DNA of 64,000 bases from Clostridia bacterium (GCA_017520505.1 JAFXFN010000006.1:172443-236442); one strand, 5' to 3'. Counted from the stretch's first letter, positions 11,038 through 53,059 are shown. Notes: generated from the sequence alone by a model not told the origin. Numbers and translations are program-made.

Positions 11038-11125
11038 CGGGTTGTCGAGGCGCCAACGTGTAGTTGACTTGGTCAACTACGGTAGTTCGCTGTACAGCGA
11101 ACTACAAGGGGCGGGCACGGGCGCA
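11038..11125 (-). repeat. Structured intergenic repeat copy fused to a REP-like half element
   Basis: Minus strand GCGCCCGTGCCCGCCCC..two GTAG..CTAC hairpins..ACGTTGGCGC, homologous to the copies at 49608 and 50802. Confidence 0.65.
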
Positions 11126-11131
11126 AGCACA

Positions 11132-11167
11132 AAGGTCGGTTTGGAAAACCCAAACCGACCTTGTTTT
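11132..11167. terminator. Intrinsic terminator between convergent genes
   Basis: AAGGTCGGTTTGG-loop-CCAAACCGACCTT followed by a T-rich run. Confidence 0.75.
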
Positions 11168-13427
11168 AATTTATTCTTTTGTACATTTGTCTTATTCGGA
11201 AAACGACCTCGTCTTCACGCAGGCGGTCTTCAGCGTAGGCATCACGCAGAAGCTCGTGCGGGATATACTCATCGTATTTTTCAAATATCGGCACTTCGGC
11301 AGGAGATACAAGCTCTTTTTTGTCAAAGCCGTCACAAGTTAAGGCGCAAAGCTTATTTATCAGTTCTCTTTCGCTGTTGCCCTCATATTTAAAGGTCAGA
11401 TAACAGCATCCGTCATACTCAATATTCGATATTTGCAGATATTTCGCATTTTTCGCCATCAGCTTGCGAAGCGTTCTGAAGCTTCTTGTGCCGAGCCACG
11501 GGAACATACAGTACGTAAGGCCTCCGAGAGGTATAATAAACCTTTTGCAAACACCCGCATTCTGTGCTACACGGCGTGCAATATCAAGACGGCGACGCGC
11601 ATTCGGCTTCAAATACGGATATATCTTATCCTCGCACAACACCTGCTTCATTCTTTCAAGCACTCGTGTGTGTATTTCGCCGCTTTCTCCGGGCCACGTG
11701 ACCTCCATTTTACCCTTTACACCCTTGACGTAGATGAGCTTTCTCGGTATATCAAGCTCCGTTACCTCCCAGACTCTGCCTGCAAGTGCAAAACGGTCGC
11801 CGACAGGCGGCGGTGTGGTTATAGTTCCTATTTCATCGGATTCACATCTGACGGAGAAGTTTTCGCTATCCTTGAAAACAGCATAAAACTTAAAGCTGTT
11901 GACTATCCTCTCGCCTGCAAGACCTATAAGAAGTGTTTTTTCCTCGGTCATCTGCAAATAATCGCATTTCAGCATACTGACAAGAAGCGCCTTATACTCT
12001 TCCTTTGTCACCCTTTCAAATGCAGGCAGCGACAGAACACGCTCTGCAAGCGCCTTGGCGGTAAGCTCACCCGACGAAAACAGTATCGACAGCGTTTGCT
12101 GGAACAAAAGAGAAAACGGCAGTCTTTTTTCACTCGGCGGTTCGATAAATCTTTCCTCGATATAAAGCTGAACTATCGCTATTGCTCTTATAAGCTCCCA
12201 CGGAATAAGCTGCGGCATAGGTGTTTCGGGAAGCGGATTTTCCTCTCTGAAAACCATAAACATTTCAGGCGGTGCGCCACGGCGTCCGCTTCTGCCGAGT
12301 CTTTGCAAAAAGCTCGAAACGGTATTCGGCGAGCCATTCTGCACTACCCTTTCAAGTCTGCCTATGTCAACACCAAGCTCAAGTGTTACGGTTGCACACG
12401 TTACGGCATTGTATTCGTCGTTTTTCATTTTAAACTCCGCTTCCTCACGAAGCGAAGCGGAAAGATTGCCGTGATGTATCAGAAAAATGTCCTGCTCGTG
12501 CCTGTTGTCGGCAATTTGCCTGAGCGTTGCCGTTATATACTCCGTTTCTTCTCTCGAATTTGAAAAAACAAGACTTTTTTTATCCTTGACACAGTCGTAA
12601 ATATATTCGTACCCTGCATCGATTCTTGCACGTGCGGGTATCGGATCTTCTTTCTTTTCTTCGGTAAACTGCGTTACGTCTTTATTGGCAAATGCATCTG
12701 TTCCCGATTGGTCGAATTTTTCGTTTTGTATATAAAAATGCTCAAGTGCAAGCCGCCAGGACGTTTTGCCCTCATTAAGTATCGGCGCTTCACATATCCT
12801 GTTTGAACCGCCGCCAAGCCACTTTTTCGCTATATCAACGTCGCCGATGGTCGCCGAAAGTCCCACACGTCTTACATCCCTGCCGATTATCCTTGCTATT
12901 CTGTTAAGCTGACAGATTATCTGATTTCCTCTGTCGGTGCCCGTCAGTATGTGTATTTCGTCAATGACGACAAAACGCAGGTCACAGAAAAGACGCACGA
13001 TGTCATTCGATCTGTTCATCAGCATACTTTCAAGCGATTCGGGTGTTATCTGAAGTATTCCCTTAGGATTTTTCAGAAGCTTGTTTTTGTGCGACGATGA
13101 CACATCGCCGTGCCAATGGAACACGGGAATATCGCACTCCTTCAATATTTCGTCAAGCCTTAAAAACTGGTCGTTTATAAGGCTTTTCAAGGGGGCGATA
13201 TAAAGCACGCCCACGCTTTGCGGCGGATCCTCCGTAAGCATTGAGATTATCGGAAAAAATGCCGCCTCGGTCTTGCCCGATGCCGTTGATGACGTAAGCA
13301 AAAGGTTATGCTCCGTTTCAAAAAGCACCTGTGCGGCGGCATTTTGAACCGCACGGAGCGACTCCCAATTATTTCTGTATATATATTCTTGTATAAACGG
13401 GGAAAATCTGTAAAATATATCCGACAT
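11166..13427 (-). CDS. Lhr-like DEAD/DEAH-box SF2 helicase
   Basis: TASGKT, YIAPLKSL, DEIH, SAT, HHG, TLELGVDIG and QRLGRSGRR motifs. Confidence 0.9.
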   Translation of the reverse strand: MSDIFYRFSPFIQEYIYRNNWESLRAVQNAAAQVLFETEHNLLLTSSTASGKTEAAFFPIISMLTEDPPQSVGVLYIAPLKSLINDQFLRLDEILKECDIPVFHWHGDVSSSHKNKLLKNPKGILQITPESLESMLMNRSNDIVRLFCDLRFVVIDEIHILTGTDRGNQIICQLNRIARIIGRDVRRVGLSATIGDVDIAKKWLGGGSNRICEAPILNEGKTSWRLALEHFYIQNEKFDQSGTDAFANKDVTQFTEEKKEDPIPARARIDAGYEYIYDCVKDKKSLVFSNSREETEYITATLRQIADNRHEQDIFLIHHGNLSASLREEAEFKMKNDEYNAVTCATVTLELGVDIGRLERVVQNGSPNTVSSFLQRLGRSGRRGAPPEMFMVFREENPLPETPMPQLIPWELIRAIAIVQLYIEERFIEPPSEKRLPFSLLFQQTLSILFSSGELTAKALAERVLSLPAFERVTKEEYKALLVSMLKCDYLQMTEEKTLLIGLAGERIVNSFKFYAVFKDSENFSVRCESDEIGTITTPPPVGDRFALAGRVWEVTELDIPRKLIYVKGVKGKMEVTWPGESGEIHTRVLERMKQVLCEDKIYPYLKPNARRRLDIARRVAQNAGVCKRFIIPLGGLTYCMFPWLGTRSFRTLRKLMAKNAKYLQISNIEYDGCCYLTFKYEGNSERELINKLCALTCDGFDKKELVSPAEVPIFEKYDEYIPHELLRDAYAEDRLREDEVVFRIRQMYKRIN

Positions 13428-13518
13428 ATTTCGTTCCTTATCTATCTGCTATATTTTATTTATTTTATCACATTTATCTTTTTTATTCAACCGCTTTACA
13501 AGAAAATTAACAGAAAAA

Positions 13519-13543
13519 GGGACGTCGAGGCGCCGTCCCCTGC
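13519..13543 (-). repeat. REP-like palindrome (GCAG-GGGACGGCGCCTCGACGTCCC)
   Basis: Tetranucleotide followed by an imperfect GC hairpin, beside a terminator; resembles GTAG-type REPs. Confidence 0.55.
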
Positions 13544-13551
13544 AAAACAAC

Positions 13552-13579
13552 AAAAGAGTCGGTACAAACCGACTCTTTT
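13552..13579 (-). terminator. purC terminator
   Basis: AAAAGAGTCGGT-ACAA-ACCGACTCTTTT. Confidence 0.8.
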
Positions 13580-13588
13580 AAAATGCAA

Positions 13589-14272
13589 TTATCTGTTAAG
13601 GATAAGCTTTGTAAGCTCAACAGGTTCAACTATCTTGTCGCCCTTATATACACGCATATTGCCCGATGCAATTTCGTCAATAAGGATAACCTCGCCGTTG
13701 TTGTAACCGAATTCAAACTTGATGTCCCAAAGGTCAAGACCGATCTCTTTAAGGTCGTCAGCAACGATCTTTGTTATCTTGAGTGTCTGTTCCTTCATGC
13801 TTGCAAACATTTCGGGAGTCATTACGTTAAGTGCGGCAAGACCTTCGCCTGTTACAAGCGGATCGCCCTTTTCGTCATTCTTGAATGTACATTCAACGTA
13901 ACCGCCTTCAAGAGGTGTACCGTCCTTGATATATTCGCCGTATCTGCGGATAAAGCTTCCCGTTGCAACAAGTCTGCAAATTACTTCAAGTCCGTGACCG
14001 AACACGGTTGCGGGAAGAACCTCCATTGTTACGTTGTCAAGGTCTGCACTTACATAGTGTGTCTTGATTCCTGCATTTTTAAGCAGTTCAAAATAACGGA
14101 TAGACGTTTCAAGATTTGCACGGCCGATACCTTCGATAGTAAGTCCGACTGTATTTTCACCGGGATCGAACACGCCGTCCTTACCTGTGCAGTCGTCCTT
14201 GAACTTCAGCATTACATTGCCGTTTTCAAGCGAGTAAACATCTTTTGTTTTGCCTTCATAAATCTTTTTCAT
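13589..14272 (-). CDS. purC: SAICAR synthetase
   Basis: [25 protein letters not shown] and LIDEI...NMRVY motifs. Confidence 0.92.
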
Positions 14273-14383
14273 AACGCAAGACTCCTTTAAGTAACAAAAA
14301 TTACATTCAATATCTTACCACATTTTTTTCCTTTTGTATAGTATTTTTTCAAAAAAAATTTGCTTCAAATGAATTTTTTTCTG

Positions 14384-14432
14384 TTGACAAAAGCAAAAAA
14401 CGGGAGTATAATTAAGTTAGCATACACTAACT
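14384..14432 (+). promoter_or_regulatory. Consensus sigma-A promoter plus palindromic operator AGTTAG-N6-CTAACT
   Basis: TTGACA(14384)-17-TATAAT(14407); palindrome at 14415-14432 over the expected transcription start. Confidence 0.7.
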
Positions 14433-14452
14433 GCAATGAGGGAGAAAATAAA

Positions 14453-14713
14453 ATGGAAAAAATAACGCTCAAAATAGAAGGAATGATGTGTCCGATGTGT
14501 GAGGCTCACATGAACGATGCCGTACGAAACGGCTTTGACGTCAAAAAGGTCGTTTCATCTCATAAGGACAAGCAAACGATTATACTGACAGAATCGAAAA
14601 TAACGGATGAACAGCTTAAAGCCACCGTTGAAAAAACGGGATATAAGCTTCTCGGAATTACCCGTGCGCCTTACGAGAAAAAGGGAATACTTTCCATTTT
14701 GAAAAAGAAATGA
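14453..14713 (+). CDS. Heavy-metal-associated (HMA/CopZ-like) domain protein
   Basis: IEGMMCPMC metal-binding motif; GGAG RBS supports ATG 14453. Confidence 0.88.
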   Translation: MEKITLKIEGMMCPMCEAHMNDAVRNGFDVKKVVSSHKDKQTIILTESKITDEQLKATVEKTGYKLLGITRAPYEKKGILSILKKK

Positions 14714-14716
14714 ATA

Positions 14717-14746
14717 AAGAGGTCGGATTGCTCCGACCTCTTGTTT
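14717..14746. terminator. Bidirectional terminator
   Basis: AAGAGGTCGGA-TTGC-TCCGACCTCTT between convergent genes. Confidence 0.75.
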
Positions 14747-15417
14747 TATAAAATATAGAATATTATTCCAAAAAACTGCAACACGCTTCCCGCAATTACA
14801 AACAAATGAAAAACGGAATGCATATAGCGCACCTTGTTTCCTATACCGTACAGCACCGCACCGACGGTATAAGCAATACCGCCTATGAGTATGAACATAA
14901 TGCCCCTCATAGGAATCGATGCCAATGCAGGCTTCGCCGCAAAGACGATGCACCAGCCCATACCGAGATAGCATATCATCGAAAGCACCGCATATTTATC
15001 AAGGTCTATTGCCGTAAATACCGTTGCAACGGCGGCACATCCCCACACGATACCGAACAAAGCCCAAGCCCAACCGGGATGCTCAGGGCGTATTCCGCAA
15101 AGAAGAACGGGGGTGTAAGTCCCTGCAATGAGAAAGTTTATCATACAATGGTCAAGCACCTGCATGACTCTTTTACCCATATTTGGGTGAAGTCCGTGAT
15201 ACACGCTTGACGTTGTATAAAGCACCACCATCGATGCGCCGTATATTGAGCCGCTGACCACCGCCCACGCATCGCTGTTTATTGCCGAATAGACGATGCA
15301 CAAAACAAGCACTGCAACGCCGAGTGTCGCACCGACGATGTGGCTGACAGTATTAAATATTTCTTCGCCTTTGGTATAGTCGGGCAAAAGTCTGTCCGAC
15401 AGTTTTGTTCTTTTCAC
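14746..15417 (-). CDS. Hemolysin III / PAQR family membrane protein
   Basis: EEIFNTVSH, SSVYH, LDHCMI..LIAGTYTP and HSVFHLFV motifs. Confidence 0.92.
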   Translation of the reverse strand: MKRTKLSDRLLPDYTKGEEIFNTVSHIVGATLGVAVLVLCIVYSAINSDAWAVVSGSIYGASMVVLYTTSSVYHGLHPNMGKRVMQVLDHCMINFLIAGTYTPVLLCGIRPEHPGWAWALFGIVWGCAAVATVFTAIDLDKYAVLSMICYLGMGWCIVFAAKPALASIPMRGIMFILIGGIAYTVGAVLYGIGNKVRYMHSVFHLFVIAGSVLQFFGIIFYIL

Positions 15418-15423
15418 TTTGAA

Positions 15424-16251
15424 TTATTTTTCAAGCATCGATATAAGCTTGCCGAGCACAGGCTCGAACTTTGCTCCATACCAATGATTCTCCTCTTCTG
15501 CCGTTGCTTTTATACATTCAACGGTGTAATCTGCCGCAATCTTTGCGCTTTCGTAAGCACTCTTTCCTCTTACAAGCGAGCCGACAAAAGCCGATGCGTA
15601 TATATCTCCCGTACCATGACAGCTATTCGGGAGCATATCGTGCTCATAATAGCTGTACTTTTCGTTTTCATAAACGACAACGCCCGTTTTGCCCTCATTG
15701 TATCTGACACCTGTAAGGATGACGTTCTTACATCCGATAGACGTAAGCTTTTCGATGATAAGGTCAATATATGCTCTGTCGTATTCCGTTTTGTATTCAA
15801 CACCCGTTAAGAAGCAAGCCTCTGTTATGTTGGGAACAACGTAATCAGCCGCAGCACAAAGCTTCTTCATTTCTTCAACGAAAGCTTCGTCAAATCCGGG
15901 GTAAAGCTTGCCGTTGTCAGCCATTGCAGGGTCAACGATAAGCGCACCCTTTACCGTTGCATTGTAAATATCGCAGACGTACTGTATCTGCTGTGCTGAG
16001 CCGAGATAGCCTGTATAAAGCGCATCAAAGGAAATATTCTCCTTCACCCAATGATCCTTTATCTTCGGCATATCCTCCGTCAGATCATTGAACGTATATC
16101 CCGAAAAGCCTGCTGTGTGCGTTGAAAGCACAGCGGACGGCAAAACGCACGTTTCAATTCCGCAAGCGGAAATTACGGGAAGCGCAACGGTCAACGAGCA
16201 CTGACCGAGGCAGGAAATATCCTGAATAGTTAAAACTCTCTTATAAGCCAT
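15424..16251 (-). CDS. pdxK: Pyridoxal/pyridoxamine kinase
   Basis: QDISCLGQCS, LSTHT, YTGYLG, VDPAMADNG, PNITEA and HGTGD motifs. Confidence 0.88.
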   Translation of the reverse strand: MAYKRVLTIQDISCLGQCSLTVALPVISACGIETCVLPSAVLSTHTAGFSGYTFNDLTEDMPKIKDHWVKENISFDALYTGYLGSAQQIQYVCDIYNATVKGALIVDPAMADNGKLYPGFDEAFVEEMKKLCAAADYVVPNITEACFLTGVEYKTEYDRAYIDLIIEKLTSIGCKNVILTGVRYNEGKTGVVVYENEKYSYYEHDMLPNSCHGTGDIYASAFVGSLVRGKSAYESAKIAADYTVECIKATAEEENHWYGAKFEPVLGKLISMLEK

Positions 16252-16343
16252 AATAAACACCTCTACATTTGATTAAGTAAATTATACACGGTTTTGATAT
16301 GATTTAAATAGCCAAACAGTAGCTTTTTTTTATAACCAGATGC

Positions 16344-17714
16344 TTATTTTTTCTTTGTTGCACTGGCAACGATCGCTGACAGCGCAAAGAGCGCGATGAC
16401 GTTGGGAATTACCATAAGGTTATTGAACATATCCGCAAGCTCCCAAACAAGGTCGTTTGAAAGAATAGAGCCGAGAAAGATGAACACGATGGCAATCAAT
16501 GAATATATAAGCACGGGAAGCTTTTTGCCGAAAAGCGATTCAACGTTAAGCTTTCCGAAGAAGTTCCAGCTCAAGATCGTAGAAAAAGCGAAGAACAGCA
16601 AGCAAACAGCAACGAAAATACCGCCGAGATTTTCACCGAATACGGTTGAAAATGCGTTCTGCATAAGGTTTGACTTTGTAAATCCGTCCTCGCTTCCGTC
16701 AGCCAAGGGGCCGCCGTTTGCGTAGAGTGTGGAAATAACAACGAGCGCTGTCATTGTAAGAACAACGAATGTGTCGATAAACACGCCTATCATAGCAACA
16801 ACGCCCTGATCGTGGGGCTTTTCAACGTTTGCCATTGCGTGTGCGTGAGGTGTTGAACCCATACCTGCTTCGTTAGAGAAAAGACCTCTCTTTGCACCCT
16901 GGCTTATTGCCGCTTTAAGTGCCGCACCGACACCGCCGCCGAGGATAGCCTGAGGAACAAACGCATACTTGAATATCATTCCGAATGCTTCGGGAACGTT
17001 TTTGATGTTAACGCCGAGAACGATAAGACCGAAAACGATATACAAAACAGCCATAACGGGAACTATCTTTTCAGTAACCGATGCAATACGCTGAATACCG
17101 CCGATGAAAATAAATGCGGATACAAGCACGAGCGTAACACCTATAGCCCAAGTGGGAATACCGAAGGCGTTATTGCAGGACTCTGCAATGGAGTTTGACT
17201 GTACCATCGTACCCATAAAGCCGAGTGCAAGGATAAGTGTAACGGAGAATATAGCAGACAAAACCTTGCCGAATTTGCCCTTGAACGCTTCTCTTATGTA
17301 GTAAACAGGACCGCCGGAGATGCTGCCGTCAGCATTCTCAACACGTGTCTTCTGCGCCAAAACAGCCTCGGCATATATCGTTGCCATACCAAAGAATGCG
17401 ATAAACCACATCCAGAATATAGCACCGGGACCGCCTACGAGTATAGCACTGCACGCACCGACAATGTTACCTGTACCGACCTGTGCGGCAATAGCCGTGG
17501 AAAGAGCCTGGAACGACGAAAGACCGCCCTTCTGCTTTCCGCCCTTCATGGAGAAGTTACCGAAAACCTTCTTCATACCTTCGCCAAAGCAGCGAACCTG
17601 AACGAATCTTGTCTTGATCGTATAGAAAAGACCTATACCGACAAGCAAGAAAATAAGAATGTAGTCAGACATATATGCATTTATAGTCTGAACAATTTTT
17701 AAAACCGTGTCCAT
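16344..17714 (-). CDS. Alanine/glycine:cation symporter (AGCS family)
   Basis: AAQVGTGNI, GGPGAIFWMW and KRGLFSNEAGMG motifs. The likely start is ATG 17714 with a GGAGG RBS; the ORF track extends through the riboswitch. Confidence 0.93.
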   Translation of the reverse strand: MDTVLKIVQTINAYMSDYILIFLLVGIGLFYTIKTRFVQVRCFGEGMKKVFGNFSMKGGKQKGGLSSFQALSTAIAAQVGTGNIVGACSAILVGGPGAIFWMWFIAFFGMATIYAEAVLAQKTRVENADGSISGGPVYYIREAFKGKFGKVLSAIFSVTLILALGFMGTMVQSNSIAESCNNAFGIPTWAIGVTLVLVSAFIFIGGIQRIASVTEKIVPVMAVLYIVFGLIVLGVNIKNVPEAFGMIFKYAFVPQAILGGGVGAALKAAISQGAKRGLFSNEAGMGSTPHAHAMANVEKPHDQGVVAMIGVFIDTFVVLTMTALVVISTLYANGGPLADGSEDGFTKSNLMQNAFSTVFGENLGGIFVAVCLLFFAFSTILSWNFFGKLNVESLFGKKLPVLIYSLIAIVFIFLGSILSNDLVWELADMFNNLMVIPNVIALFALSAIVASATKKK

Positions 17715-17734
17715 AGCACGACCTCCAAAAAAAT

Positions 17735-17759
17735 AAAAATCCGCTGAAAGACAGCGGAG
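17735..17759 (-). terminator. Riboswitch expression-platform terminator
   Basis: Minus strand TCCGCTG-TCTTT-CAGCGGA-TTTTT between aptamer and RBS. Confidence 0.7.
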
Positions 17760-17790
17760 AACAAAGAAATATACCAGACATAGAAGTGAA

Positions 17791-17918
17791 ATGCCTGCCC
17801 TGTCCTTTTGCCTGAGAGATTCGGCTTGCGCCTTGCACCTTCGGCACCCGCACGGCTTGCGGGATTCTCCAGAGCCTCCTCCGCCCTCGGTCTTTAAAAT
17901 TCCAAGAGCCTCAACGGT
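17791..17918 (-). ncRNA. Glycine riboswitch (singlet aptamer with upstream ghost-aptamer-like hairpin)
   Basis: Minus strand CTCTGGAGA...GCCGAAGGTGCAA...AATCTCTCAGGCAAAAGGACAG upstream of the Ala/Gly symporter. Confidence 0.9.
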
Positions 17919-18097
17919 TGCAAACGCTATTCTATCATAACACCGACCGAAATTCAATGACAATATTGCACAAATATCGACATACGGTTTTGTGTATATT
18001 CTACATACAAATAGAATTTATTATTTATTTAATGATTATGCAAATGCTTTGTTCATATTTTTCGGGTATCATAAGCATATATATCTTCGGAGGAATT

Positions 18098-18346
18098 ATG
18101 GAAACAAGAGTAGCACTTATAAGCATAATCGTTGAAAAATTCGATTCGGCGGAGGAAATAAACTCACTTCTTCACAAATACGGTGAATACGTCATCGGCA
18201 GAATGGGACTTCCCTACCGCAAGAAAAATATAAATATTATAAGTGTCGCAGTAGATGCTCCGCAGGATATTATATCGGCTCTTTCGGGAAAGATAGGCAA
18301 GCTTGACGGTGTAAGCGTCAAGACTGTGTATTCCGGAGGTATCTGA
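18098..18346 (+). CDS. Iron-only hydrogenase system regulator (TM1266 family, ACT-like)
   Basis: METRVALISIIV...IGRMGLPY...ALSGKIGKLDGVSVK; GGAGG RBS; translationally coupled to hydE. Confidence 0.85.
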   Translation: METRVALISIIVEKFDSAEEINSLLHKYGEYVIGRMGLPYRKKNINIISVAVDAPQDIISALSGKIGKLDGVSVKTVYSGGI

Positions 18347-19389: not shown

Positions 19390-19439
19390 AATTTATCTAA
19401 AGGGGAAGAAGCTCTGACCCTAAAGAAAGGAAAAATAAA

Positions 19440-22981: not shown

Positions 22982-23228
22982 GACAAACCCCCAAAAATAT
23001 TTGATTTAATCAAATTATAACATATGTCGTCAAAATTTGTCAAGGGGGTGATTTTCAAAAAATTCATTTGACATTTAATCTGCTACTCAACGACTACACA
23101 ATGTTAATTTGTGTTTGCATGAGCACTTTTCTGTGCAGTATATTGAATGAATTGAGATTAAAACAATGCGGTAAATTACAAAAAACTTTGCAATTTACCG
23201 CATTATAGATTATTGTGTTTAAATTCCG

Positions 23229-24131
23229 TTATATCTTCGCCAAAAGCTCGCTGAATGCAAGTATAAGGAGTGCACAAAGGGCAATTATCATACCGACAAG
23301 ACGGCGTCCGCTTACCTTTTCACGGAACAAGGTCATAGCAACCACGACCGACATCATTGTTGTTCCGCCGTTTTGTATCGGGAATAATACTGCACTGTCA
23401 AGCACACCCGAAAGATAGAGGTTGACCTTGTTCAAAAATGCGATAAACGCACCGCAAATAACTGTCAAAAGGAGCAGTTTTTTTGTATCTATTCCCTTTT
23501 CTTCCGCTTTTTCCTTCTTGCCTCTTGAGCTTACAAAATAGCTTACCGTGCAAAGAATTGCCGCAGATACAAAGGCGATCGCAAGAAACGCACCTGTTTC
23601 AGAAGCAAATGACGACTTCTGCTGTGTCTTTTGCATAATTCCGATAGAACCCATAAAGAGGAACGCCAAAAAGCAGAAAATGAGCCATTTTGCACTCGCC
23701 CCTTTGCTGTCTTTTTTCTTTTCCGTCGAAAAATATGCGGCAACTATCATAAGAACCGTTCCGACTATTTTCCAGACCGACAGCGATTCATCCCAGATGA
23801 TATATCCCGAAAATGCAGGAAGTATCATTGACGAGGTAATAAGCAGAATGGTAAAGGACATCGGTCCGCAGTTAAGCGCATTGAGCTTGAAAATACCGCT
23901 GAGTGCCGTCACAGCACCGAACGCTATACCGAATAAAACCGTAAAGAGCGATGCTTTAAAGCCCGAAATTATGCTTATTGCAACAAGAATAACTGCCGCA
24001 ACGGAATAAATGCACATATTTATTCTGTAGTTATCGGAGCGCTCCTTTACGGCTTTTTTGCCGAAATAATTGTAAAATGACGAATACGCAACGTTAGCGC
24101 ATACGGAAAGCGCAAGCAAAAAATAATTCAT
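23229..24131 (-). CDS. DMT/EamA family transporter
   Basis: About 10 TM helices with two EamA-like halves (ALNCGPMS; LFREKVS). Confidence 0.85.
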   Translation of the reverse strand: MNYFLLALSVCANVAYSSFYNYFGKKAVKERSDNYRINMCIYSVAAVILVAISIISGFKASLFTVLFGIAFGAVTALSGIFKLNALNCGPMSFTILLITSSMILPAFSGYIIWDESLSVWKIVGTVLMIVAAYFSTEKKKDSKGASAKWLIFCFLAFLFMGSIGIMQKTQQKSSFASETGAFLAIAFVSAAILCTVSYFVSSRGKKEKAEEKGIDTKKLLLLTVICGAFIAFLNKVNLYLSGVLDSAVLFPIQNGGTTMMSVVVAMTLFREKVSGRRLVGMIIALCALLILAFSELLAKI

Positions 24132-32027: not shown

Positions 32028-32063
32028 TATTTAATCTTGATTATCTGAATCTTTACAGTAAAG

Positions 32064-32157
32064 GCGCCATGCCTGCACCCCCCACGGCTCGTAGGCGTTA
32101 CAGCGGTACGCCTCGAGCCGCCCTGCAGGCGTGGCGCATATTTCCTTGCGGAAATAT
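32064..32157 (+). repeat. Structured intergenic repeat, long copy
   Basis: GCGCCATGCCTGCA-CCCCCCA-CGGCTCG...CGAGCCG-CCC-TGCAGGCGTGGCGC followed by ATATTTCC-TTGC-GGAAATAT. Confidence 0.8.
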
Positions 32158-32254
32158 ATTTTGTAAATTTTTAAGTAAAACAAGTAAAGACACGTTTCGG
32201 CATATAATCATCCGACACCGTTAATTATTATTTTACAAAAATTAAAGATAAATG

Positions 32255-44298: not shown

Positions 44299-44307
44299 AA
44301 ATATAAC

Positions 44308-44340: not shown

Positions 44341-44347
44341 AGTTTTA

Positions 44348-45664: not shown

Positions 45665-45780
45665 AATGATCTTCCTTTCTTTATATGTTTTGTTCTTCCG
45701 GTTTTATACAAGCTTTCGTTGATCTCTTATCTTTAATTTGATTATACCATAAAACAAATTGACTGTCAATAAATCCCTCA

Positions 45781-45967
45781 TTGTGATATTAGACAAAATT
45801 TCACATTTTTTGTACAATATGACAACCCCTTTTATTTTTTATTACGGCGCAAACAGTTAAACATCGTATCTTTTTTTACCCTCTTTGGCATCTTTTGAAA
45901 ACAATTTTAGAAGTATAAGAAAATTTTGTATTTTTATATTTACATTTTCGTTATTTTGTTGTATAAT
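45781..45967 (+). promoter_or_regulatory. pduL operon promoter and two upstream TTGT-N8-ACAA palindromes
   Basis: TTTACA(45939)-17-TATAAT(45962); palindromes at 45781-45796 and 45810-45825. Confidence 0.55.
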
Positions 45968-46003
45968 ACTCAGAGTTAATAAATAAATTAAGGAGATAGA
46001 TCA

Positions 46004-46576
46004 ATGGCAAACAAAATTTTAGTTGAAACATCTGCACGCCACGTTCATCTTACAAGAGAACACGTTGAGATCCTTTTCGGTAAGGGTGCAACACTTACAC
46101 ACAAGAAGGACTTGAGCCAGCCCGGCCAGTTCGCTTGCGAAGAAAGAGTAACTGTTTCAGGCCCCAAGAAGGATATTCCCAACGTAATCATCCTCGGTCC
46201 TGAAAGACCTGCTTCCCAGGTTGAAATTTCATTCACAGACGCTCGTACACTCGGCGTTACAGCTCCCGTTAAGGAAAGCGGCGACGTTGCAGGTACACCC
46301 GGTGTTAAGCTTGTAGGCCCCTGCGGCGAGGTTGAGCTTAACGAAGGCGTTATCATCGCAAAGCGTCACATCCATATGACACCCGAAGACGCTGCGGCTC
46401 TCGGTGTTGAGGACAAGCAGATCGTAAGCGTTAAGGTTGATTCCGAGCGTACAACGATATTCGGTGATACAGTTGTTCGTGTAAGCCCCAAGTTTGCACT
46501 TGCAATGCACATCGACACAGATGAATCAAATGCTGCATGCGCTTTCGGCACATGCTACGGTGAGATCGTAAAATAA
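46004..46576 (+). CDS. pduL: PduL-type phosphotransacylase without encapsulation peptide
   Basis: SARHVHL, LSQPGQFA, QVEISFTDA, AKRHIHM and HIDTDESNA motifs. Confidence 0.93.
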   Translation: MANKILVETSARHVHLTREHVEILFGKGATLTHKKDLSQPGQFACEERVTVSGPKKDIPNVIILGPERPASQVEISFTDARTLGVTAPVKESGDVAGTPGVKLVGPCGEVELNEGVIIAKRHIHMTPEDAAALGVEDKQIVSVKVDSERTTIFGDTVVRVSPKFALAMHIDTDESNAACAFGTCYGEIVK

Positions 46577-46600
46577 TCATCTTAAAAGGAGATATATAAA

Positions 46601-47302
46601 ATGGCTGAATTACAGTATTCAAATGAAGTACAGCATATGTGTAAGGTCGCTAAAGGCCCCCACCACGGTCCCGCTCCCATTCCCGAAGAAGGCAAATGGG
46701 TAAAGGTTTATGAGATCAAGGATATTTCCGGTCTTTCCCACGGTATCGGCTGGTGCGCTCCTCAGCAGGGTACATGTAAGCTTACACTTAACGTAAAAGA
46801 AGGTATCATTGAGGAAGCTCTCGTTGAAACACTCGGTTGCTCAGGTATGACACACTCTGCGGCTATGGCTGCTGAAATTCTCCAGGGCAAGACACTTCTC
46901 GAGGCTCTTAATACTGACCTTGTTTGTGATGCTATCAACGTTGCTATGCGTGAGATCTTCAAGCAGCTCGTTTACGGTAGATCACAGACAGCTTTCTCCG
47001 AAAACGGTCTTCCCGTCGGTGCTTCTCTTGAAGACCTCGGCAAGGGACTTCGTTCACAGGTTGGTACGATCTTCGCTACAAAGGAAAAGGGCGTACGTTA
47101 CCTCGAAATGGCAGAAGGTTATATACTTTCCCTCGCACTTGACGCAAACGACGAGGTTTGCGGATACAAGTTCGTTCACCTCGGCAAGATGATGGAAGCT
47201 ATATCCAACGGTACAGATGCCGCTGAAGCTTATGAAAAGAACATTAAGACTTACGGCAGATACGACGGTGCGGCTAAATACATCAACCCCAGAAAGCAGT
47301 AA
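46601..47302 (+). CDS. NifU/IscU-like Cys-containing protein (GGGtGRT partner)
   Basis: GWCAPQQGTCKL, GCSGMTHSAAMA and LVCDAIN motifs. Confidence 0.82.
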   Translation: MAELQYSNEVQHMCKVAKGPHHGPAPIPEEGKWVKVYEIKDISGLSHGIGWCAPQQGTCKLTLNVKEGIIEEALVETLGCSGMTHSAAMAAEILQGKTLLEALNTDLVCDAINVAMREIFKQLVYGRSQTAFSENGLPVGASLEDLGKGLRSQVGTIFATKEKGVRYLEMAEGYILSLALDANDEVCGYKFVHLGKMMEAISNGTDAAEAYEKNIKTYGRYDGAAKYINPRKQ

Positions 47303-47316
47303 TGGAGGGCAGACAA

Positions 47317-48315
47317 ATGATAAGATTTGAAGGATATGAAAGAAGAATCGCCGGAATCGAAGCTTGCATGGCTGAATACGGCATTAAGGATCTTGAAGAA
47401 GCAAGAGACATCTGCCTTGCAAAGGGTATCAACGTTGAAGATATCGTTAAAGGCGTTCAGCCCATCGCATTTGAAAACGCTGTTTGGGCTTATACACTCG
47501 GTTGCGCTGTTGCAATCAAAAAGGGAGTAAAAAATGCTGCTGATGCTGCTGAAGCTATCGGTATCGGTCTTCAGGCATTCTGTATCCCCGGCTCTGTTGC
47601 CGCTAACCGTAAGGTTGGTCTCGGCCACGGTAACCTCGGCGCAATGCTTCTGCGCGAAGAAACAAAGTGCTTCTGCTTCTTGGCAGGCCACGAATCATTT
47701 GCGGCTGCTGAAGGTGCTATCGGTATCGCAAGAAGCGCAAACAAGGTAAGAAAAGAACCCCTCCAGGTTATTCTTAACGGTCTTGGCAAGGATGCCGCTT
47801 ATATCATCTCCAGAATCAACGGCTTCACATACGTTGAAACTGATTATGATTTCTACTCTGATGAGCTTACGGTTAAGCGCACTATCGCTTATTCCGACGG
47901 CGAACGCTCCAAGGTAAGATGCTACGGCGCTAACGACGTTCTCGAAGGCGTTGCAATCATGAAGAAGGAAGCTGTTGACGTTTCCATCACAGGTAACTCA
48001 ACTAACCCCACAAGATTCCAGCACCTCGTTGCAGGCACATACAAGAAGTGGGCTATTGAAAACGGTAAGAAGTACTTCTCCGTTGCATCAGGCGGCGGTA
48101 CAGGCAGAACACTTCACCCCGATAACATGGCTGCAGGCCCTGCTTCCTACGGTCTTACAGACTCTATGGGACGTATGCACGGCGATGCGCAGTTCGCAGG
48201 TTCTTCCTCCGTTCCCGCACACGTTGAAATGATGGGTCTCATCGGCGCAGGTAACAACCCCATGGTTGGTATGACAGTTGCTTGTGCTGTTGCTATCGAA
48301 GAAGCAAGCAAATAA
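47317..48315 (+). CDS. GGGtGRT family protein, function unknown
   Basis: Literal SGGGTGRTLHPDN motif; GGAGG RBS supports ATG 47317. Confidence 0.92.
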   Translation: MIRFEGYERRIAGIEACMAEYGIKDLEEARDICLAKGINVEDIVKGVQPIAFENAVWAYTLGCAVAIKKGVKNAADAAEAIGIGLQAFCIPGSVAANRKVGLGHGNLGAMLLREETKCFCFLAGHESFAAAEGAIGIARSANKVRKEPLQVILNGLGKDAAYIISRINGFTYVETDYDFYSDELTVKRTIAYSDGERSKVRCYGANDVLEGVAIMKKEAVDVSITGNSTNPTRFQHLVAGTYKKWAIENGKKYFSVASGGGTGRTLHPDNMAAGPASYGLTDSMGRMHGDAQFAGSSSVPAHVEMMGLIGAGNNPMVGMTVACAVAIEEASK

Positions 48316-48418
48316 TTGAATAAAAAAGTAAACATTTGCAAGAACTTTGAGTATCATTGAAAAAAGCTTTCATGAAAGCTCAAAGCAGATTCAGATCGAC
48401 TTTTTAACAACATTCGAT

Positions 48419-48478
48419 AAAAAAAGAGTTAGACACATCGTTTTGAGCAATATTCAATGATGTGTCTAACTTTTTTTG
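48419..48478 (+). terminator. Long hairpin terminator of the pduL operon
   Basis: AAAAAGAGTTAGACACATCGTT...AATGATGTGTCTAACTTTTTTT. Confidence 0.72.
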
Positions 48479-48515
48479 CAAATGAAGAAATTTAAAATAA
48501 TAAGGTTAAGAGGAC

Positions 48516-49571
48516 TTGATTCTAATGATAACATCCATCGATTCCAATAATCTTCCGCAAGCGGTAGATTACCTTAATTCCAGAATATTCAAGTTTTTTC
48601 AATTAAAAAGGGCTTATAAAATCGCCATACCGATTTGGGCAACATTATATTTTTTCTTTTTCTGTATATTTACATACGGAGCTGTAGAGCTTTTTATATT
48701 TCAAGGACATGCAAAAATCGAATTTCCTGTTCTTTCAAATATTTGGCATTGGTTTTATGATTCAATTCTGCCTATTGTCGATTTAGGTATATGGTATTTT
48801 TTTGCCGTATTAGTCATTATCCACGTTTGTGTTTTGCCTTTAATCGTAGGTTTGAGCGTTAAATTAGCTGTATCTAAAACATACAGTCCCGATATTTCCG
48901 AACTGACACTTGATATAAACGACAAATATCTCCCTGATAAACTCTCACACAACGCACGGAAATTTGAATACGCTAAATATGTTCTTAACACTTCGAAATT
49001 ATGTATTCCATTTGATATTGTTTATGTTATTGGAATAATCGCAAACTATCTTTATATGAATTGGAACGAATTATCGATAGAAGTCTCGACTTCGATTTCT
49101 ACATTTATCACAAAAATTCTATTGACTATTCTCATTCTTGCAGTTGCCTTTTTCGCATTTTGGGGTTTGATGGCGTTATCTTGCCTGATATGCAAAGCAC
49201 CCGTTTCCATTAAGACAAACACAAACTTCGTTGCGGCTTGTTGCAGTTATTCGTTAGAACTCGAGAGGGTAGAGAGATGCCGCTATGCATCAAGTGAATT
49301 TGATATAGCAAAATACAGAAAGCATATGGGAATATCTCCAGAAAAAAGGGCATATCCCAATAACCCCATTAGAAATACCATTCCCAATCAAACAAATTTC
49401 AACAATAGCAGCGTTACAACAACACCTTATGTTTCTATCGAAGAAAAAATTGCCGCCGAAAATGCGTACTTTTCAGGCGAATTGAGTGCAGAAGAGCTTA
49501 ATAAAACCATATCATCGTATTGGGAAAATCATACCATAGACGAGCATTGGCCTGATGTCGGCGATGGTTAA
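48516..49571 (+). CDS. Hypothetical AT-rich 4-TM membrane protein with polar C-terminal tail
   Basis: 351 aa ORF, four hydrophobic segments, low GC, own terminator at 49574-49608. Confidence 0.7.
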   Translation: MILMITSIDSNNLPQAVDYLNSRIFKFFQLKRAYKIAIPIWATLYFFFFCIFTYGAVELFIFQGHAKIEFPVLSNIWHWFYDSILPIVDLGIWYFFAVLVIIHVCVLPLIVGLSVKLAVSKTYSPDISELTLDINDKYLPDKLSHNARKFEYAKYVLNTSKLCIPFDIVYVIGIIANYLYMNWNELSIEVSTSISTFITKILLTILILAVAFFAFWGLMALSCLICKAPVSIKTNTNFVAACCSYSLELERVERCRYASSEFDIAKYRKHMGISPEKRAYPNNPIRNTIPNQTNFNNSSVTTTPYVSIEEKIAAENAYFSGELSAEELNKTISSYWENHTIDEHWPDVGDG

Positions 49572-49607
49572 TTACAAAAGAGCTTTGGATTTTCCAAGGC
49601 TCTTTTG

Positions 49608-49695
49608 TATGCGCCGTCGCACGGTGCCGCCCCTTTACCAGAGGCAGACGGCACGCAGTTTGCGTGTCGTCTGTGGGGGGCGGGCACGGGGTGCC
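49608..49695 (-). repeat. Structured intergenic repeat copy
   Basis: Minus strand CCGTGCCCG-CCCCCCA-CAGACGACACGCA-AAC-TGCGTGCCGTCTG-CC...GGCGCATA. Confidence 0.68.
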
Positions 49696-49808
49696 GTTTT
49701 TCGGATCATATTCTTTTTTTTACATTTTTACAAAACACCTCCGATTTTTATTGACATAACGAAACTTTTGTAGTATAAAAATAGTAGGCTACAAACAGGA
49801 GGATCAAT

Positions 49809-50699
49809 ATGGTTATTTCAACTGCAATTTCAATTATACGTGACCGTTTCGGAAACAAAAAGGCGATAAAAATGCTATCGGATGCGGGATTTAAAACGCT
49901 TGACTGTTCCCTTTTTGAAATGGCTTATTACGACAGCCCTTTCAACTCGGAAAATTGGGAAGAAGAAGCAAAAAAGATGAAGGCTTATTCAGACTCACTC
50001 GGAGTTACGTACAATCAGGCGCACTTACCTTTCAATTTCAAGTGGAACGAGGAGGGCGAATGGGAGCGTTTTATCGGCCCTGCACATTACAGAGCACTTG
50101 ACATTTGCGGAATTATGGGCGTAAAATACGTTGTTGCGCACCCTATACATCACATGGAATATCTCGGACACGAGGAAGAAGTGTTCGAATACAATATGCG
50201 TTTTTTCCGCACGATGATACCGTATTGCGATAAGTACGGCTACAAGATATGTATTGAAAATATGTGGCAGCACGAAGCGAAAACAAGGCGCATCGGACAC
50301 GATTCCTGCTCACACATGGAAGAACTCATTCGTTATATAGACGGTCTTGGCGGAACGGAGCATTTTGCGGCTTGTCTTGACCTCGGTCACACAACGATCG
50401 TCGGCTTTGAGCCGGAAAATTGCATAAGAAAGCTCGGTCATAAGTATCTGTATGCTCTGCACATTCACGATAACGATTATATGAGCGACAGACACGACCT
50501 GCCCGGTCAAGGAAAAATAAACTGGGAAGAGGTCTGCCGTGCGCTCGGCGAGATAGACTACGTCGGCGACTTCACCTACGAATCAAGTAATTTCCAAAGA
50601 CACGTGCCTGAGGATATGCTCCCCATATCGTTTAAATATATGCTCGATGTTGCTAAGCATCTTACAAACAAAATCGACAGCTACAGACCGAAAAAATAA
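49809..50699 (+). CDS. Sugar phosphate isomerase/epimerase (AP endonuclease 2 TIM barrel)
   Basis: QAHLPF, ICIENM, CLDLGH, LHIHDND..DRHDLPG.G and FTYE motifs; TTGACA-17-TATAAA promoter at 49751. Confidence 0.9.
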   Translation: MVISTAISIIRDRFGNKKAIKMLSDAGFKTLDCSLFEMAYYDSPFNSENWEEEAKKMKAYSDSLGVTYNQAHLPFNFKWNEEGEWERFIGPAHYRALDICGIMGVKYVVAHPIHHMEYLGHEEEVFEYNMRFFRTMIPYCDKYGYKICIENMWQHEAKTRRIGHDSCSHMEELIRYIDGLGGTEHFAACLDLGHTTIVGFEPENCIRKLGHKYLYALHIHDNDYMSDRHDLPGQGKINWEEVCRALGEIDYVGDFTYESSNFQRHVPEDMLPISFKYMLDVAKHLTNKIDSYRPKK

Positions 50700-50801
50700 A
50701 CTGTAAATTATAAAATCAGCAGGCTCATTTTGAAAACGAGCCTGCTCCTTTTATTTATATTGTAAGACACCCTCGACTGTCCCTGCCGCCTTTTTAGAAA
50801 A

Positions 50802-50880
50802 CATATTTCCGCAAGGAAATATGCGCCCAACGTCCGCAGGCGGTTCGTATACGAACCGTGGGGGGTGCGGACGGGCGCAG
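50802..50880 (-). repeat. Structured intergenic repeat copy
   Basis: Minus strand TGCGCCCGTCCGCA-CCCCCCA-CGGTTCG-TATA-CGAACCG-CC-TGCGGACGTTGGGCGC-ATATTTCCTTGCGGAAATAT. Confidence 0.8.
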
Positions 50881-51061
50881 AAAGTTATAAAATTAAAGGT
50901 CTGCTAATGTAATATGTACCGTTTACAGCGGGCACTGGGTGCTATTTTTCAGGCTGTATAAACATTGTTTATACACGTTTTTCATTGAAATCTTGTTAGC
51001 GACACTACTAAAAAGGATCGATAAAACCGCATCACTCAAATGTGAAGCGGTTTTATTATTA

Positions 51062-52357
51062 TCAAAAATCATTCATTGCAAGCGGCATCGGGGTTTTGGC
51101 TGTGACCTCTTTGGCAACAAAGACAAAGTACACAAGCGTTAAAAGCTCGCAGGCCGATTTTAAATGCGCTAACACGTTCGGGTGTAATACGCCGTCTAAG
51201 CATATTGAGCACACAAAAAGCAGTACCCACACAACGACCGAGATCACATTTAAGGGACTTATCATTTTGTCCTTTATAAGCGATATTATAACGAGTGCCA
51301 AGCCGAGTATCGCCATGGCGTAACAAATAAGCGAAATCAGAATTTCAATCCACGTTGTCAGAATGAGCATTTCGTATCCGTCGGGTGTTTCCACGATTCT
51401 TGGCATGGAGATATATCTTACCGTCTCCATCAGCTCACATATAACGATATTTGCAATTTTTGCAAACGAAAAAACGTAACAGCCTATCGCAAGCAGACGG
51501 TTTTCGTTAATTTTTCTGTATTCGTACACAAAATATATCATATATATCACAAGCGCAACAGTTATGAAAATATCAACGTATTCAGGAATCTTTCCTGCAA
51601 AAAAAGCACTGACCCATCCATTGAACACGTACGGAATTACAAACGTGAATATCTTATTCAAAGCACTTGCCAAAGCTACCGCTGTTAATGCCATAACAGT
51701 TTTTCTTGACAGTCCTATATAAAGTGACGAGCTTTCCTTTTCCAAAACCGAATAGAGGAAATATAAAAGCGACGTCAAGACATACGAGCTGACATAAATA
51801 TATATCGTTTTATATACGTACCACTTCATCAAGGCAAGCGGTATTATCAAAAACGCAAGGCTCACGGAAACGATCAGGCAGACGGCAACGTATATTCCCG
51901 CCTTTCCTATCCTTTTAAGCACACGTTTTTTATAGCTTTCGCTTTCTGAAAACGAAGCATTAAAACATATTCCGTGACGTCTGAACGAGCATATCATATA
52001 CACAGAGGCTGTGCAAAATATACAAAATGCGCTTTTATAAAGCTCCGTTTCCAAGAAAGTTCTGTTTATATTGTTCAGATAATGCACAAACGGCATAATT
52101 ACCGAAAAATACGCAAGAACAATTTTGCACACCGCACCGAATGCTTTTTCAAAAAACGATGCGCTTTTTTTAGCACCCACAACAAGGCACACAGCGCACG
52201 AAATGAACACAAGTGCTTCAAACGATACGCTCAATAAATATCTCGGAAGCTCTGCATTTTTCAAAACATTTATAAGCTTGACCGCACCGAATACAAAGGA
52301 AACGAGTGCCGAAATTATAAATGCATTTCGGTAAATTTTTTCTTTTAAAGATTCCAT
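51062..52357 (-). CDS. Hypothetical polytopic membrane protein (~12 TM)
   Basis: Start MESLKEK after AAGGAG; highly hydrophobic; terminator at 51021-51056. Confidence 0.72.
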   Translation of the reverse strand: MESLKEKIYRNAFIISALVSFVFGAVKLINVLKNAELPRYLLSVSFEALVFISCAVCLVVGAKKSASFFEKAFGAVCKIVLAYFSVIMPFVHYLNNINRTFLETELYKSAFCIFCTASVYMICSFRRHGICFNASFSESESYKKRVLKRIGKAGIYVAVCLIVSVSLAFLIIPLALMKWYVYKTIYIYVSSYVLTSLLYFLYSVLEKESSSLYIGLSRKTVMALTAVALASALNKIFTFVIPYVFNGWVSAFFAGKIPEYVDIFITVALVIYMIYFVYEYRKINENRLLAIGCYVFSFAKIANIVICELMETVRYISMPRIVETPDGYEMLILTTWIEILISLICYAMAILGLALVIISLIKDKMISPLNVISVVVWVLLFVCSICLDGVLHPNVLAHLKSACELLTLVYFVFVAKEVTAKTPMPLAMNDF

Positions 52358-52370
52358 AAATTTCTCCTTA

Positions 52371-52577
52371 TCAGAAATAAAACAGCTCTTCAAATTTTTT
52401 GTCAAGTGCGATACAAAGAATAAGCGCAAGCTTTGCCGTCGGGTTGAACTGACCGACCTCAATGGAGCTTATCGTATTACGTGACACACCGACCATATCG
52501 GCAAGCTGCTGCTGTGACAGCCCCTTTTCACCTCTCGCCGCCTTGAGGTTATTTTTTAATACGAGCTTGTCATCCAT
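52371..52577 (-). CDS. XRE-family HTH regulator
   Basis: LSQQQLADMVGVSRNTISSIEVGQFNPT. Confidence 0.92.
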   Translation of the reverse strand: MDDKLVLKNNLKAARGEKGLSQQQLADMVGVSRNTISSIEVGQFNPTAKLALILCIALDKKFEELFYF

Positions 52578-52891
52578 AAATACACCAAAGCACCAACTGC
52601 CGTAATTGCCGAACAACAGCAAATAATACCGAAAATCAAATCAATTTTTTCTTTGATATGTGAAAACATTGAAAGATACAATCCTGCCTGCATTGAAAAC
52701 AATACTATTAAACCTGCAAATGCAACCTCAGGTTTATGCAAGTATCTTGCAACAACAGCAAGCGCCAAACATACGGCGAAGCCTACGTAACGGCTTGTTT
52801 TCGTGGATTTTGCAAATAAGCTTCTTTCGTATTCACCGTCTCGGCCTTCATTTTCTTCTCTGCTCTTTTTGAGTATTTCTTCTTTATCCAT
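52556..52891 (-). CDS. DUF6442-like small membrane protein
   Basis: MDKEEILKKSREEN...D.E.E followed by 3 TM helices; usual XRE partner. Confidence 0.75.
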   Translation of the reverse strand: MDKEEILKKSREENEGRDGEYERSLFAKSTKTSRYVGFAVCLALAVVARYLHKPEVAFAGLIVLFSMQAGLYLSMFSHIKEKIDLIFGIICCCSAITAVGALVYLWMTSSY

Positions 52892-52902
52892 AGCAAACCT
52901 CT

Positions 52903-52953
52903 TTGACAAGTTTTATTTGCAAACATTATACACTTGCCAAGTTTTATTGTCAA
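52903..52953 (-). promoter_or_regulatory. Consensus promoter overlapped by two 20 bp operator repeats
   Basis: Minus strand TTGACA-17-TATAAT; sites TTGACAAGTTTTATTTGCAA (52903) and TTGCCAAGTTTTATTGTCAA (52934). Confidence 0.78.
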
Positions 52954-53009
52954 TAGATATTTCGCAATAGTTACATTTTATTCATATTCTGCTTTGTAAC
53001 TTTCAATTA

Positions 53010-53059
53010 CATATTTCCTCAGGAAATATCTGCGCCCGCCGAGGGTGGCGGGGCGCAGA
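53010..53059 (-). repeat. Structured intergenic repeat, minimal copy
   Basis: Minus strand TCTGCGCCCCGCC-ACCCTC-GGCGGGCGCAG-ATATTTCC-TGA-GGAAATATG. Confidence 0.7.

Follow-up and report, generated by a model that had tools for sequence, protein, structure and literature searches.

Dispersed hairpin-forming DNA repeats of a probably mobile type in a genus of uncultured gut Clostridia

Introduction

The stretch of DNA considered here, 64,000 nucleotides from a Clostridia bacterium (GCA_017520505.1, JAFXFN010000006.1:172443-236442; hereafter the window), carries in the gaps between its genes five GC-rich, hairpin-forming elements, which we number 1 to 5 and which a first-pass annotation, made from the sequence alone, had placed at 11050, 32064, 49608, 50802 and 53010. 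Copies 1 and 4 lie between convergent genes, copies 2 and 5 lie in sense behind a gene, and copy 3 lies antisense in a gap between tandem genes, as judged from the list of open reading frames (ORFs) of the window. In this contribution we describe the architecture, multiplicity and turnover of these elements, which are probably copies of a genus-restricted, non-coding, hairpin-forming DNA repeat family of a mobile type, a Clostridial counterpart of the mosaics formed by repetitive extragenic palindromes (REPs) and bacterial interspersed mosaic elements (BIMEs) and of miniature inverted-repeat transposable elements (MITEs).

The source genome of the window is a 1.97-Mb assembly of 35 contigs with a GC content of 43% and proteins that are clostridial in look, and the sequencing runs that contain the stretch are animal-gut metagenomes, including those of goat, sheep and cattle. 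Contigs of this genome (G000) are given below as C-numbers (C1, C4, C23 and so on), and ten congeners are designated G001 to G010.

Architecture of the window elements

All five copies reported by the annotation are present, each as a GC-rich island, and their refined limits and parts are collected in Table 1. Read along the C-rich strand, an element consists of an outer stem P1, a short internal loop, a second stem P2, an unpaired run of C residues, an apical hairpin P3, the 3' arms of P2 and P1, a single A and, finally, a separate second hairpin of 7-8 bp, P4. The outer stem of the window copies is GCGCC/GGCGC, degenerate in copy 3 as had been stated, and the 5' end of the outer element may start with GCGCC, GTGCGC or GCACCC in the family as a whole. 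The C-run ends in A, T or G, and the exact CCCCCCA proposed for three window copies is found in copies 2, 3 and 4. P3 is a variable apical hairpin or set of hairpins followed by two or three bases, often CC, before the 3' arms of P2 and P1. P4 has the form ATATTTCC N3-4 GGAAATAT in three window copies, and the window has three matches to this pattern, where 100 shuffles predict 0.00; 3' of P4 there is often an A/T-rich tail such as ATTTT. The length of an element varies from 30 to 125 nt and that of its variable terminal structure from 0 to ~60 nt.

Table 1. Refined coordinates of the elements and of their parts, counted from the first letter of the window
Feature	Position	Strand	Description
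Copy 1	11050..11124	(-)	GCGCC/GGCGC outer stem, short second stem, broken C-run CCCCTT, two apical hairpins, no P4
GTAG-tagged hairpin nested in copy 1	11082..11105		GTAGTTCG..CGAACTAC; same as C1:183524-183547
Second GTAG-tagged hairpin nested in copy 1	11060..11080		GTAGTTGAC..GTCAACTAC; same as C1:183502-183522
Left imperfect terminal inverted repeat of the unit carrying copy 2	32036..32057	(+)	
Copy 2, whole	32063..32157	(+)	
Copy 2, GC-rich core	32063..32137	(+)	P1, P2 CCTGCA/TGCAGG, unpaired CCCCCCA, P3 GGCTCG../..CGAGCC and a further apical stem
Copy 2, P4	32138..32157	(+)	ATATTTCC TTGC GGAAATAT
Right imperfect terminal inverted repeat of the unit carrying copy 2	32162..32184	(+)	
Copy 3, degenerate	49611..49695	(-)	Outer arm GCACCCC, CCCCCCA, P3 hairpin, decayed 3' arms, variant P4 CACCGT GCG ACGG
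Copy 4, whole	50803..50880	(-)	
Copy 4, GC-rich core	50823..50880	(-)	P1, P2 TCCGCA/TGCGGA, CCCCCCA, P3 GGTTCG TATA CGAACC
Copy 4, P4	50803..50822	(-)	Second hairpin
5' remnant of another copy	50928..50942	(-)	GCACCCAGTGCCCGC
Copy 5, whole	53011..53058	(-)	
Copy 5, short form	53030..53058	(-)	One continuous stem CTGCGCCCCGCC / GGCGGGCGCAG, loop ACCCTC, no P3
Copy 5, P4	53011..53029	(-)	Second hairpin

Folded as single-stranded DNA, copies 1 to 5 have z-scores of -6.3, -8.6, -4.7, -7.2 and -5.9 relative to dinucleotide shuffles, none of the 200 shuffles being as good for any copy; the fold of copy 1 has an energy of -22.9 kcal/mol. The compensatory changes by which copies 2 and 4 had been said to differ in P2 and P3 read as claimed (Table 1). 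Three features had escaped the annotation: the second hairpin is present, as a variant, in copy 3; next to copy 4 there is what remains of the 5' part of another copy; and copy 2 forms the centre of a longer unit, ~149 bp in size, whose ends are imperfect inverted repeats. The last feature defines a subfamily, to which copy 2 belongs, of units ~150 bp long in which the imperfect terminal inverted repeats measure ~22 bp; such flanks recur around C1:148920, C23:22956, C34:34575, C1:80225 and C8:69360, and most copies lack these ends.

The family also includes reduced and rearranged forms. In short copies P3 is absent and the C-run itself forms the hairpin loop, and in one of them, at C4:8060, the stem is the same and the loop is inverted so that a G-run replaces the C-run; the loops of the copies at C34:57344 and C34:21959 look inverted in a similar way. 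Other copies are internally deleted, with one half removed (e.g., C4:34031 and C14:25369).

A multi-copy family with covarying helices

The annotation had proposed building a covariance model and counting copies genome-wide. The model, R1, was built from an alignment of 13 clean copies (A1) with the four helices given as structure, and it recovered further copies both in the source genome and in its relatives. There are 94 matches in the source genome at E<=1, 68 of them at E<0.01, and the family is thus present in at least 68 copies, a number that is a lower bound because 150 of 1099 first-look candidates were scored. In the window, copy 2 (matched at 32064-32157) scores 64.7 bits, copy 4 scores 77.8 bits and the short copy 5 scores 34.2 bits (E 0.0004); copy 1 is missed at E<=0.001 because it has no P4. 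The exact P4 hairpin motif occurs at 54 sites of the genome. A script descriptor requiring a C-run framed by two perfect stems gave 76 hits in the genome and 13 in a locally shuffled one, and since most of the 76 coincide with R1 matches, intact cores devoid of P4 are few, and nearly all intact cores carry it. A run of at least five C residues is present in 63 of the 68 copies, on the strand where P4 lies 3', and copy 5 is among the five copies that lack it. P4 itself exists in covarying versions, with ATATTTCC found 41 times, AGATTTCC 11 times, arms of the ACACCGC type about ten times and others more rarely.

When R1 was run over the window, 24 loci of the source genome and 73 loci of related metagenome-assembled genomes (MAGs), 114 matches were obtained, which yielded an alignment (A2) of 103 distinct rows, 43 of them from the source genome. 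Standard pairs occupy 96.6% of 2396 paired cells of this alignment and 81.2% in column shuffles, and 22 of the 26 pairs are changed on both sides, in 392 cells compared to 117 in shuffles, figures to be read with the caveat that A2 was fitted to the very model whose pairs it tests. When the partners are slid by 1 to 3 columns, pairing falls to 30-52%. The invariance of P4 and of the last P1 bases in the MAG loci is a consequence of their having been chosen by the exact P4 pattern. The 103 rows contain 31 distinct arms of P1, 26 of P2 and 23 of P3, with a few recombinant combinations. The idea that structure in this family is conserved more than sequence is thus borne out by compensatory change in all four helices.

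As the annotation had supposed, the elements do not correspond to a known Rfam family. At the gathering score no family falls on them in the whole window, where only a glycine riboswitch is matched elsewhere; a permissive search of the window gave nothing on the elements at E<=10; and in a 19.5-kb locus holding seven R1-matched copies nothing falls on the elements at E<=1. With no Rfam match, strong covariation and further copies in the genome, none of the findings named in advance as fatal to the proposed family was made.

Distribution and turnover

At E<=0.001, R1 has matches in eight of the ten other species of the genus, and the counts for G001 to G010 are 0, 1, 55, 47, 4, 53, 11, 61, 45 and 0, several of these genomes being only 73-85% complete. 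At the same threshold, 30 genomes representing other genera of the family and order gave no match. When 185,579 species genomes were scanned for the exact pattern, 90 stretches were obtained; of the 80 that were listed, nearly all belong to some ten uncultured Eubacteriales/Oscillospiraceae MAGs, and seven unrelated records have a single hit each. The repeat family is restricted to one genus of uncultured animal-gut Clostridia. Carriage by phages or viruses was rejected, as the elements had no match in a blastn search of 50,697 phage records and the exact pattern had none in viral contigs.

Within the genus, individual sites are filled, empty or replaced in different species. Copy 2 is shared by the source genome and G006 (91% identity), where it is part of a block (~32031-32226 in the window) that is larger than the GC-rich core. 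At the same site in G008, G009, G003 and G004 only 29-90 nt lie between the flanks, compared to ~194 nt, and the place is taken by a terminator-like hairpin in G008, G009 and G004 and by another short sequence in G003. In G006 the gene at 51062-52462 is followed by a complete and different element at the position of the 50928-50942 remnant, of which the source genome, G004 and G008 retain only the first 15 bases, followed by copy 4; copy 4 itself is conserved in G004 and G008 at ~93%. The single copy of G002 is 93% identical to copy 4 and has unrelated flanks. Copy 3 is kept in G004 (91% identity), and the corresponding gap of G008 holds an intact copy in the opposite orientation. There are also gaps that are empty in the source genome and hold an element in relatives, e.g., at C9:55330-55420 and at ~23120-23230 of the window, and in two relatives different elements in opposite orientations adjoin one and the same gene end.

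An insertion or deletion adjoins one of the repeats as well: at 50700-50800 of the window, G004 and G006 have ~1.8-2 kb of extra DNA, which includes a small gene on the other strand, between the gene at 49809-50699 and copy 4.

Nested hairpins and mosaics

The apical hairpin, which the annotation had called interchangeable, is indeed variable, and is often a small GTAG-tagged, REP-like hairpin that is also found in other modules. The source genome contains 68 GTAG-tagged hairpins with stems of at least 8 bp, compared to 6 in the shuffled genome, most of them being GTAGTTCG..CGAACTAC or GTAGTTGAC..GTCAACTAC; their CAGT-tagged relatives number 45, compared to 4 after shuffling. GTAGTT/CAGTT hairpins are found inside R1 elements as P3 in 35 of 102 cases, and others sit in a different module, which consists of GTAGGGG...CCC and, after it, an A/T-rich motif. 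The hairpin GTAGTTCG..CGAACTAC even contains itself at C22:1532-1592, where the nesting is three deep. From their anatomy, the longer copies appear to derive from short cores by the entry of another hairpin into the loop, immediately 3' of the C-run, and it is such insertion that would make the apical hairpin interchangeable.

The intergenic gaps of C4, C6, C14, C22 and C32 are mosaics of these modules, and those of C4 combine the element with GTAGGGG..CCC modules, GTAG hairpins and A/T-rich spacer motifs. Another structured motif, Gut-1 (RF01706), has nine matches above the gathering score in the source genome and 33 at E<=0.01 (e.g., C12:60726-60909, C5:14652-14858 and L008:13622-13684), which often form inverted pairs and sometimes adjoin GC-rich elements. 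The behaviour of Gut-1 in this genome is that of one more repeat family, not that of a single RNA gene.

Placement relative to genes

The 68 copies matched by R1 are dispersed singly among housekeeping genes; 55 are in classifiable intergenic gaps, eight are in crude ORF calls and five are at contig edges. Convergent gaps make up 20% of the intergenic length and hold 22 of the 55 copies (p=4e-4), whereas divergent gaps make up 26% of it and hold eight (p=0.03); in tandem gaps the copies run with the genes in 11 cases and against them in 14 (p=0.69). Gene calls behind these statistics are crude and clustered copies are not independent. The statement that all copies lie downstream of gene 3' ends holds in the window, where each copy adjoins at least one gene 3' end, and does not hold genome-wide, given the copies between divergent genes. 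The reported proximity to terminators also stands, four of the five window copies adjoining a separate canonical terminator hairpin; of the elements themselves a terminator scan of the window marks only a sub-hairpin of copy 4. Such a placement fits tolerated selfish DNA.

Interpretation

The view of these elements as an unnamed multi-copy repeat of a mobile, REP/MITE-like type is supported by their copy number, covariation, lack of Rfam matches and distribution. How such a family probably arose may be pictured as follows. The basic module is a GC-rich palindrome with a C-run in its loop, followed by the small second hairpin. Longer copies would result when other small hairpins, many of them tagged with GTAG as typical REPs are, enter that loop, and the modules would be copied, lost, truncated and recombined at the level of DNA. 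They would build up at places where they are nearly harmless: past terminators and, most of all, in convergent gaps. Pairing would be kept because the factor that copies or maintains the modules works on the palindrome in its folded state, be it an extruded hairpin or a single strand of DNA. The family presumably spreads by enzymatic transposition, for which RAYT-like (REP-associated tyrosine transposase) Y1 transposases are candidate enzymes, and the C-run is a putative landmark for recognition or insertion.

A search of the source genome with PF01797 found an IS200-type transposase at a contig end and a RAYT-like protein of 186 amino acids, which scores 70.1 bits on the NCBIfam model "REP-associated tyrosine transposase" (cut-off 80) and 26.9 bits on Pfam Y1_Tnp. 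By protein search there are at least eight RAYT-like places in this genome, two of them (the intact genes at C23:72009-72566 and C4:1972-2472) open over most of the query and the rest partial or interrupted by stops, and RAYT-like matches are present in all 11 genomes of the genus. The presence of RAYT in these 11 genomes does not correlate cleanly with copy number: the orthologues of low-copy G005 and G007 contain stops and zero-copy G001 has only fragments.

Two of these genes have repeats of their own. The IS200-type gene (L001:1468-1944 (+), i.e., C9:100596-101072; 157.7 bits on NCBIfam IS200), located at the very end of its contig, has flanking hairpins that are unrelated in sequence to the GC-rich family. 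An intact RAYT-like coding sequence (L002:1456-2016 (-), i.e., C23:72009-72566) contains a 26-nt GTAGGGG...CCC unit and its reverse complement ~140 nt apart, units of the same kind as those in the intergenic mosaics.

A number of observations weigh against a mobile origin or, at least, against its enzymatic side. The flanks of six RAYT-like loci, including the two intact ones, are not framed by the elements; a neighbouring copy was seen at only one of the six, a broken paralogue at C7:38927, and RAYT adjacency was consequently given up as a link. Zero-copy G010 has open RAYT-like copies. IS200/IS605-type insertion into single-stranded DNA, which uses the lagging-strand template, would predict a replication-strand bias, and none was found, with 23 copies against 24 by a gene-majority proxy and 30 against 23 by a GC-skew proxy, both rough in a draft genome. 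Since the elements frame no intact RAYT-like gene and the replication bias is absent, the movement by an HUH transposase that the annotation had suggested is a lead only. No clean filled/empty pair with a target-site duplication was found among the species compared, whose flanks differ by 10-25%, and for this reason "empty" sites are to be read as replaced sequence and not as precise footprints; the comparison of filled and empty sites that had been recommended thus revealed sites filled, empty or replaced between species, without a precise junction. A strain of ~97% identity in sequencing run X13 keeps all three copies of the 48300-54300 region, with small indels (insertions or deletions) in the loop of copy 5, and movement is therefore not fast. 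The unit carrying copy 2 takes the place of the terminator-like hairpin of G008, G009 and G004, as an element with a terminator-like function might. Finally, selection on a structure could also account for the strength of the covariation and the conservation of the unpaired C-run.

The last two points lead to the structured RNA that had been offered as an alternative. In this unlikely scenario the family would be a repeated RNA structure. It would either serve in 3' untranslated regions to end transcription or shield the ends of mRNAs, or form a pool of small RNAs that use the unpaired C-run to bind G-rich ribosome-binding sites, in the manner of the C-rich seeds of small RNAs of Firmicutes. 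The compensatory changes, the unpaired C-run and the A/T-rich tail often found 3' of P4 all suit such an RNA, and four of the five window copies are in sense behind a gene end. An RNA helix, however, normally tolerates G-U pairs, and does so on the transcribed strand only, whereas among ~1580 cells of P1-P3 in the 103 distinct rows there are 1478 Watson-Crick pairs, 18 G:T and 15 A:C; G:T being as rare as A:C, a palindrome maintained at the DNA level is favoured over an RNA helix. The same conclusion follows from the random orientation in tandem gaps, the existence of loop-inverted copies and the presence of a separate terminator beside most window copies, and the terminator scan and the range of 0 to 61 copies among congeners also argue against an RNA function. 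Signatures of an RNA are thus absent from the family. In metatranscriptome runs X19 and X20 contigs cover parts of the 48300-54300 region and none spans an element, a break that assembly alone is expected to produce at repeats.

Two further possibilities share with the interpretation as mobile-type repeats the idea that a folded DNA strand is read. The first, which appears rather improbable, is that the elements are sites in single-stranded DNA whose palindrome an enzyme recognizes by its shape, the C-run marking the strand and the point of cutting or insertion and the loop serving as a landing pad for smaller hairpins. If true, this would place the logic of integron attC sites outside integrons, in Firmicutes. 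The second, very improbable, is that a recombinase or a nucleoid protein, and not a transposase, reads the folded strand by its shape, much as attC sites are read, at structure-specific recombination or protein-binding sites, with the C-run indicating the strand and the apical part being free to vary: Watson-Crick-only stems conserved with little conservation of sequence, an asymmetric unpaired segment on one strand, a tip of 0 to ~60 nt and five tyrosine-recombinase matches (PF00589) in the genome speak for it, whereas the stem ends have no conserved GTT/AAC core, the copies do not form cassette arrays, and their patchy number within the genus fits selfish spread better than a host function.

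Relation to known repeats

REP/BIME of Enterobacteria and REPINs of Pseudomonas are mobilized by RAYT (TnpA-REP) Y1 transposases (PMC3116915, PMC3337134, PMC3733652 and PMC5581495), and a hallmark of REPs is a GTAG or CGTC tag conserved at one palindrome end (PMC3733652). Like REP, BIME and REPIN sequences, the present family is extragenic, high-copy, hairpin-forming, non-coding, lineage-restricted and mostly vertically kept, and its modules combine into mosaics of the BIME type. The nested inner hairpins are GTAG-tagged and the genome has RAYT-like genes, as expected of REPs. In contrast to REPs, the outer element is larger (30-125 nt), with three stacked stems, a conserved unpaired C-run and a separate second hairpin, and its own end has no GTAG or CGTC tag. 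Unlike a REPIN, it is built of nested stems and a separate 3' hairpin and not of an inverted doublet around a spacer, and in place of a single-copy RAYT framed by repeats there are RAYT-like genes that are multi-copy, partly broken and unflanked. A published survey (PMC5581495) reports Group 1 RAYTs from Clostridia, their association with abundant flanking 16-mers being weak.

The subfamily that includes copy 2 resembles MITEs in its ~22-bp imperfect inverted repeats, its size of ~150 bp and its presence or absence between species. It differs from them in that no insertion sequence was found that shares its ends and could be its parent and that most copies of the family lack these ends, and target-site duplications are not readable at the empty sites, which are too diverged. 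The similarity to integron attC sites consists in a conserved structure with a variable sequence, unpaired bases on one strand and a terminal structure of variable length; unlike attC sites, the elements have no R/L core consensus and form no cassette arrays, and no adjacent integrase was seen, although no search was aimed at an integron integrase. An integron reading of the element-dense contigs was ruled out, the genes there being ordinary housekeeping ones.

Gut-1 (Weinberg et al. 2010, PMC2864571) is, like the GC-rich family, an orphan structured motif of gut metagenomes that is multi-copy in the source genome; the GC-rich elements differ from it in sequence and fold and have no match to it. 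Gut-1 was described there as a candidate non-coding RNA from human gut sequences only. A limited library of literature on REPINs and RAYTs of Firmicutes and on repeats of Oscillospiraceae, Ruminococcaceae and Clostridiales yielded no description of elements such as these.

Two matches to established RNA families lie apart from the repeats. At 17790-17882 (-) of the window there is the aptamer of a glycine riboswitch (RF00504, 61.8 bits) upstream of the ORF ending at 16344, an ordinary feature unrelated to the family, and L008:12376-12594 (-), corresponding to C4:18875-19093, has a sub-threshold match to 6S RNA (36.3 bits, with a gathering score of 46.4).

Concluding remarks

REP/BIME-type repeats have been studied in detail in Proteobacteria. 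The family described here is a clear example from gut Clostridia, with a covarying multi-stem fold, a conserved unpaired C-run, visible nesting of GTAG hairpins and 0 to ~60 copies per congener. Families of this kind break metagenome assemblies and yield spurious small ORFs and, because their covariation is strong, they may pass for structured RNAs. Should the enzyme that copies these repeats be found, high-copy and zero-copy species of one genus would be available for a natural comparison.

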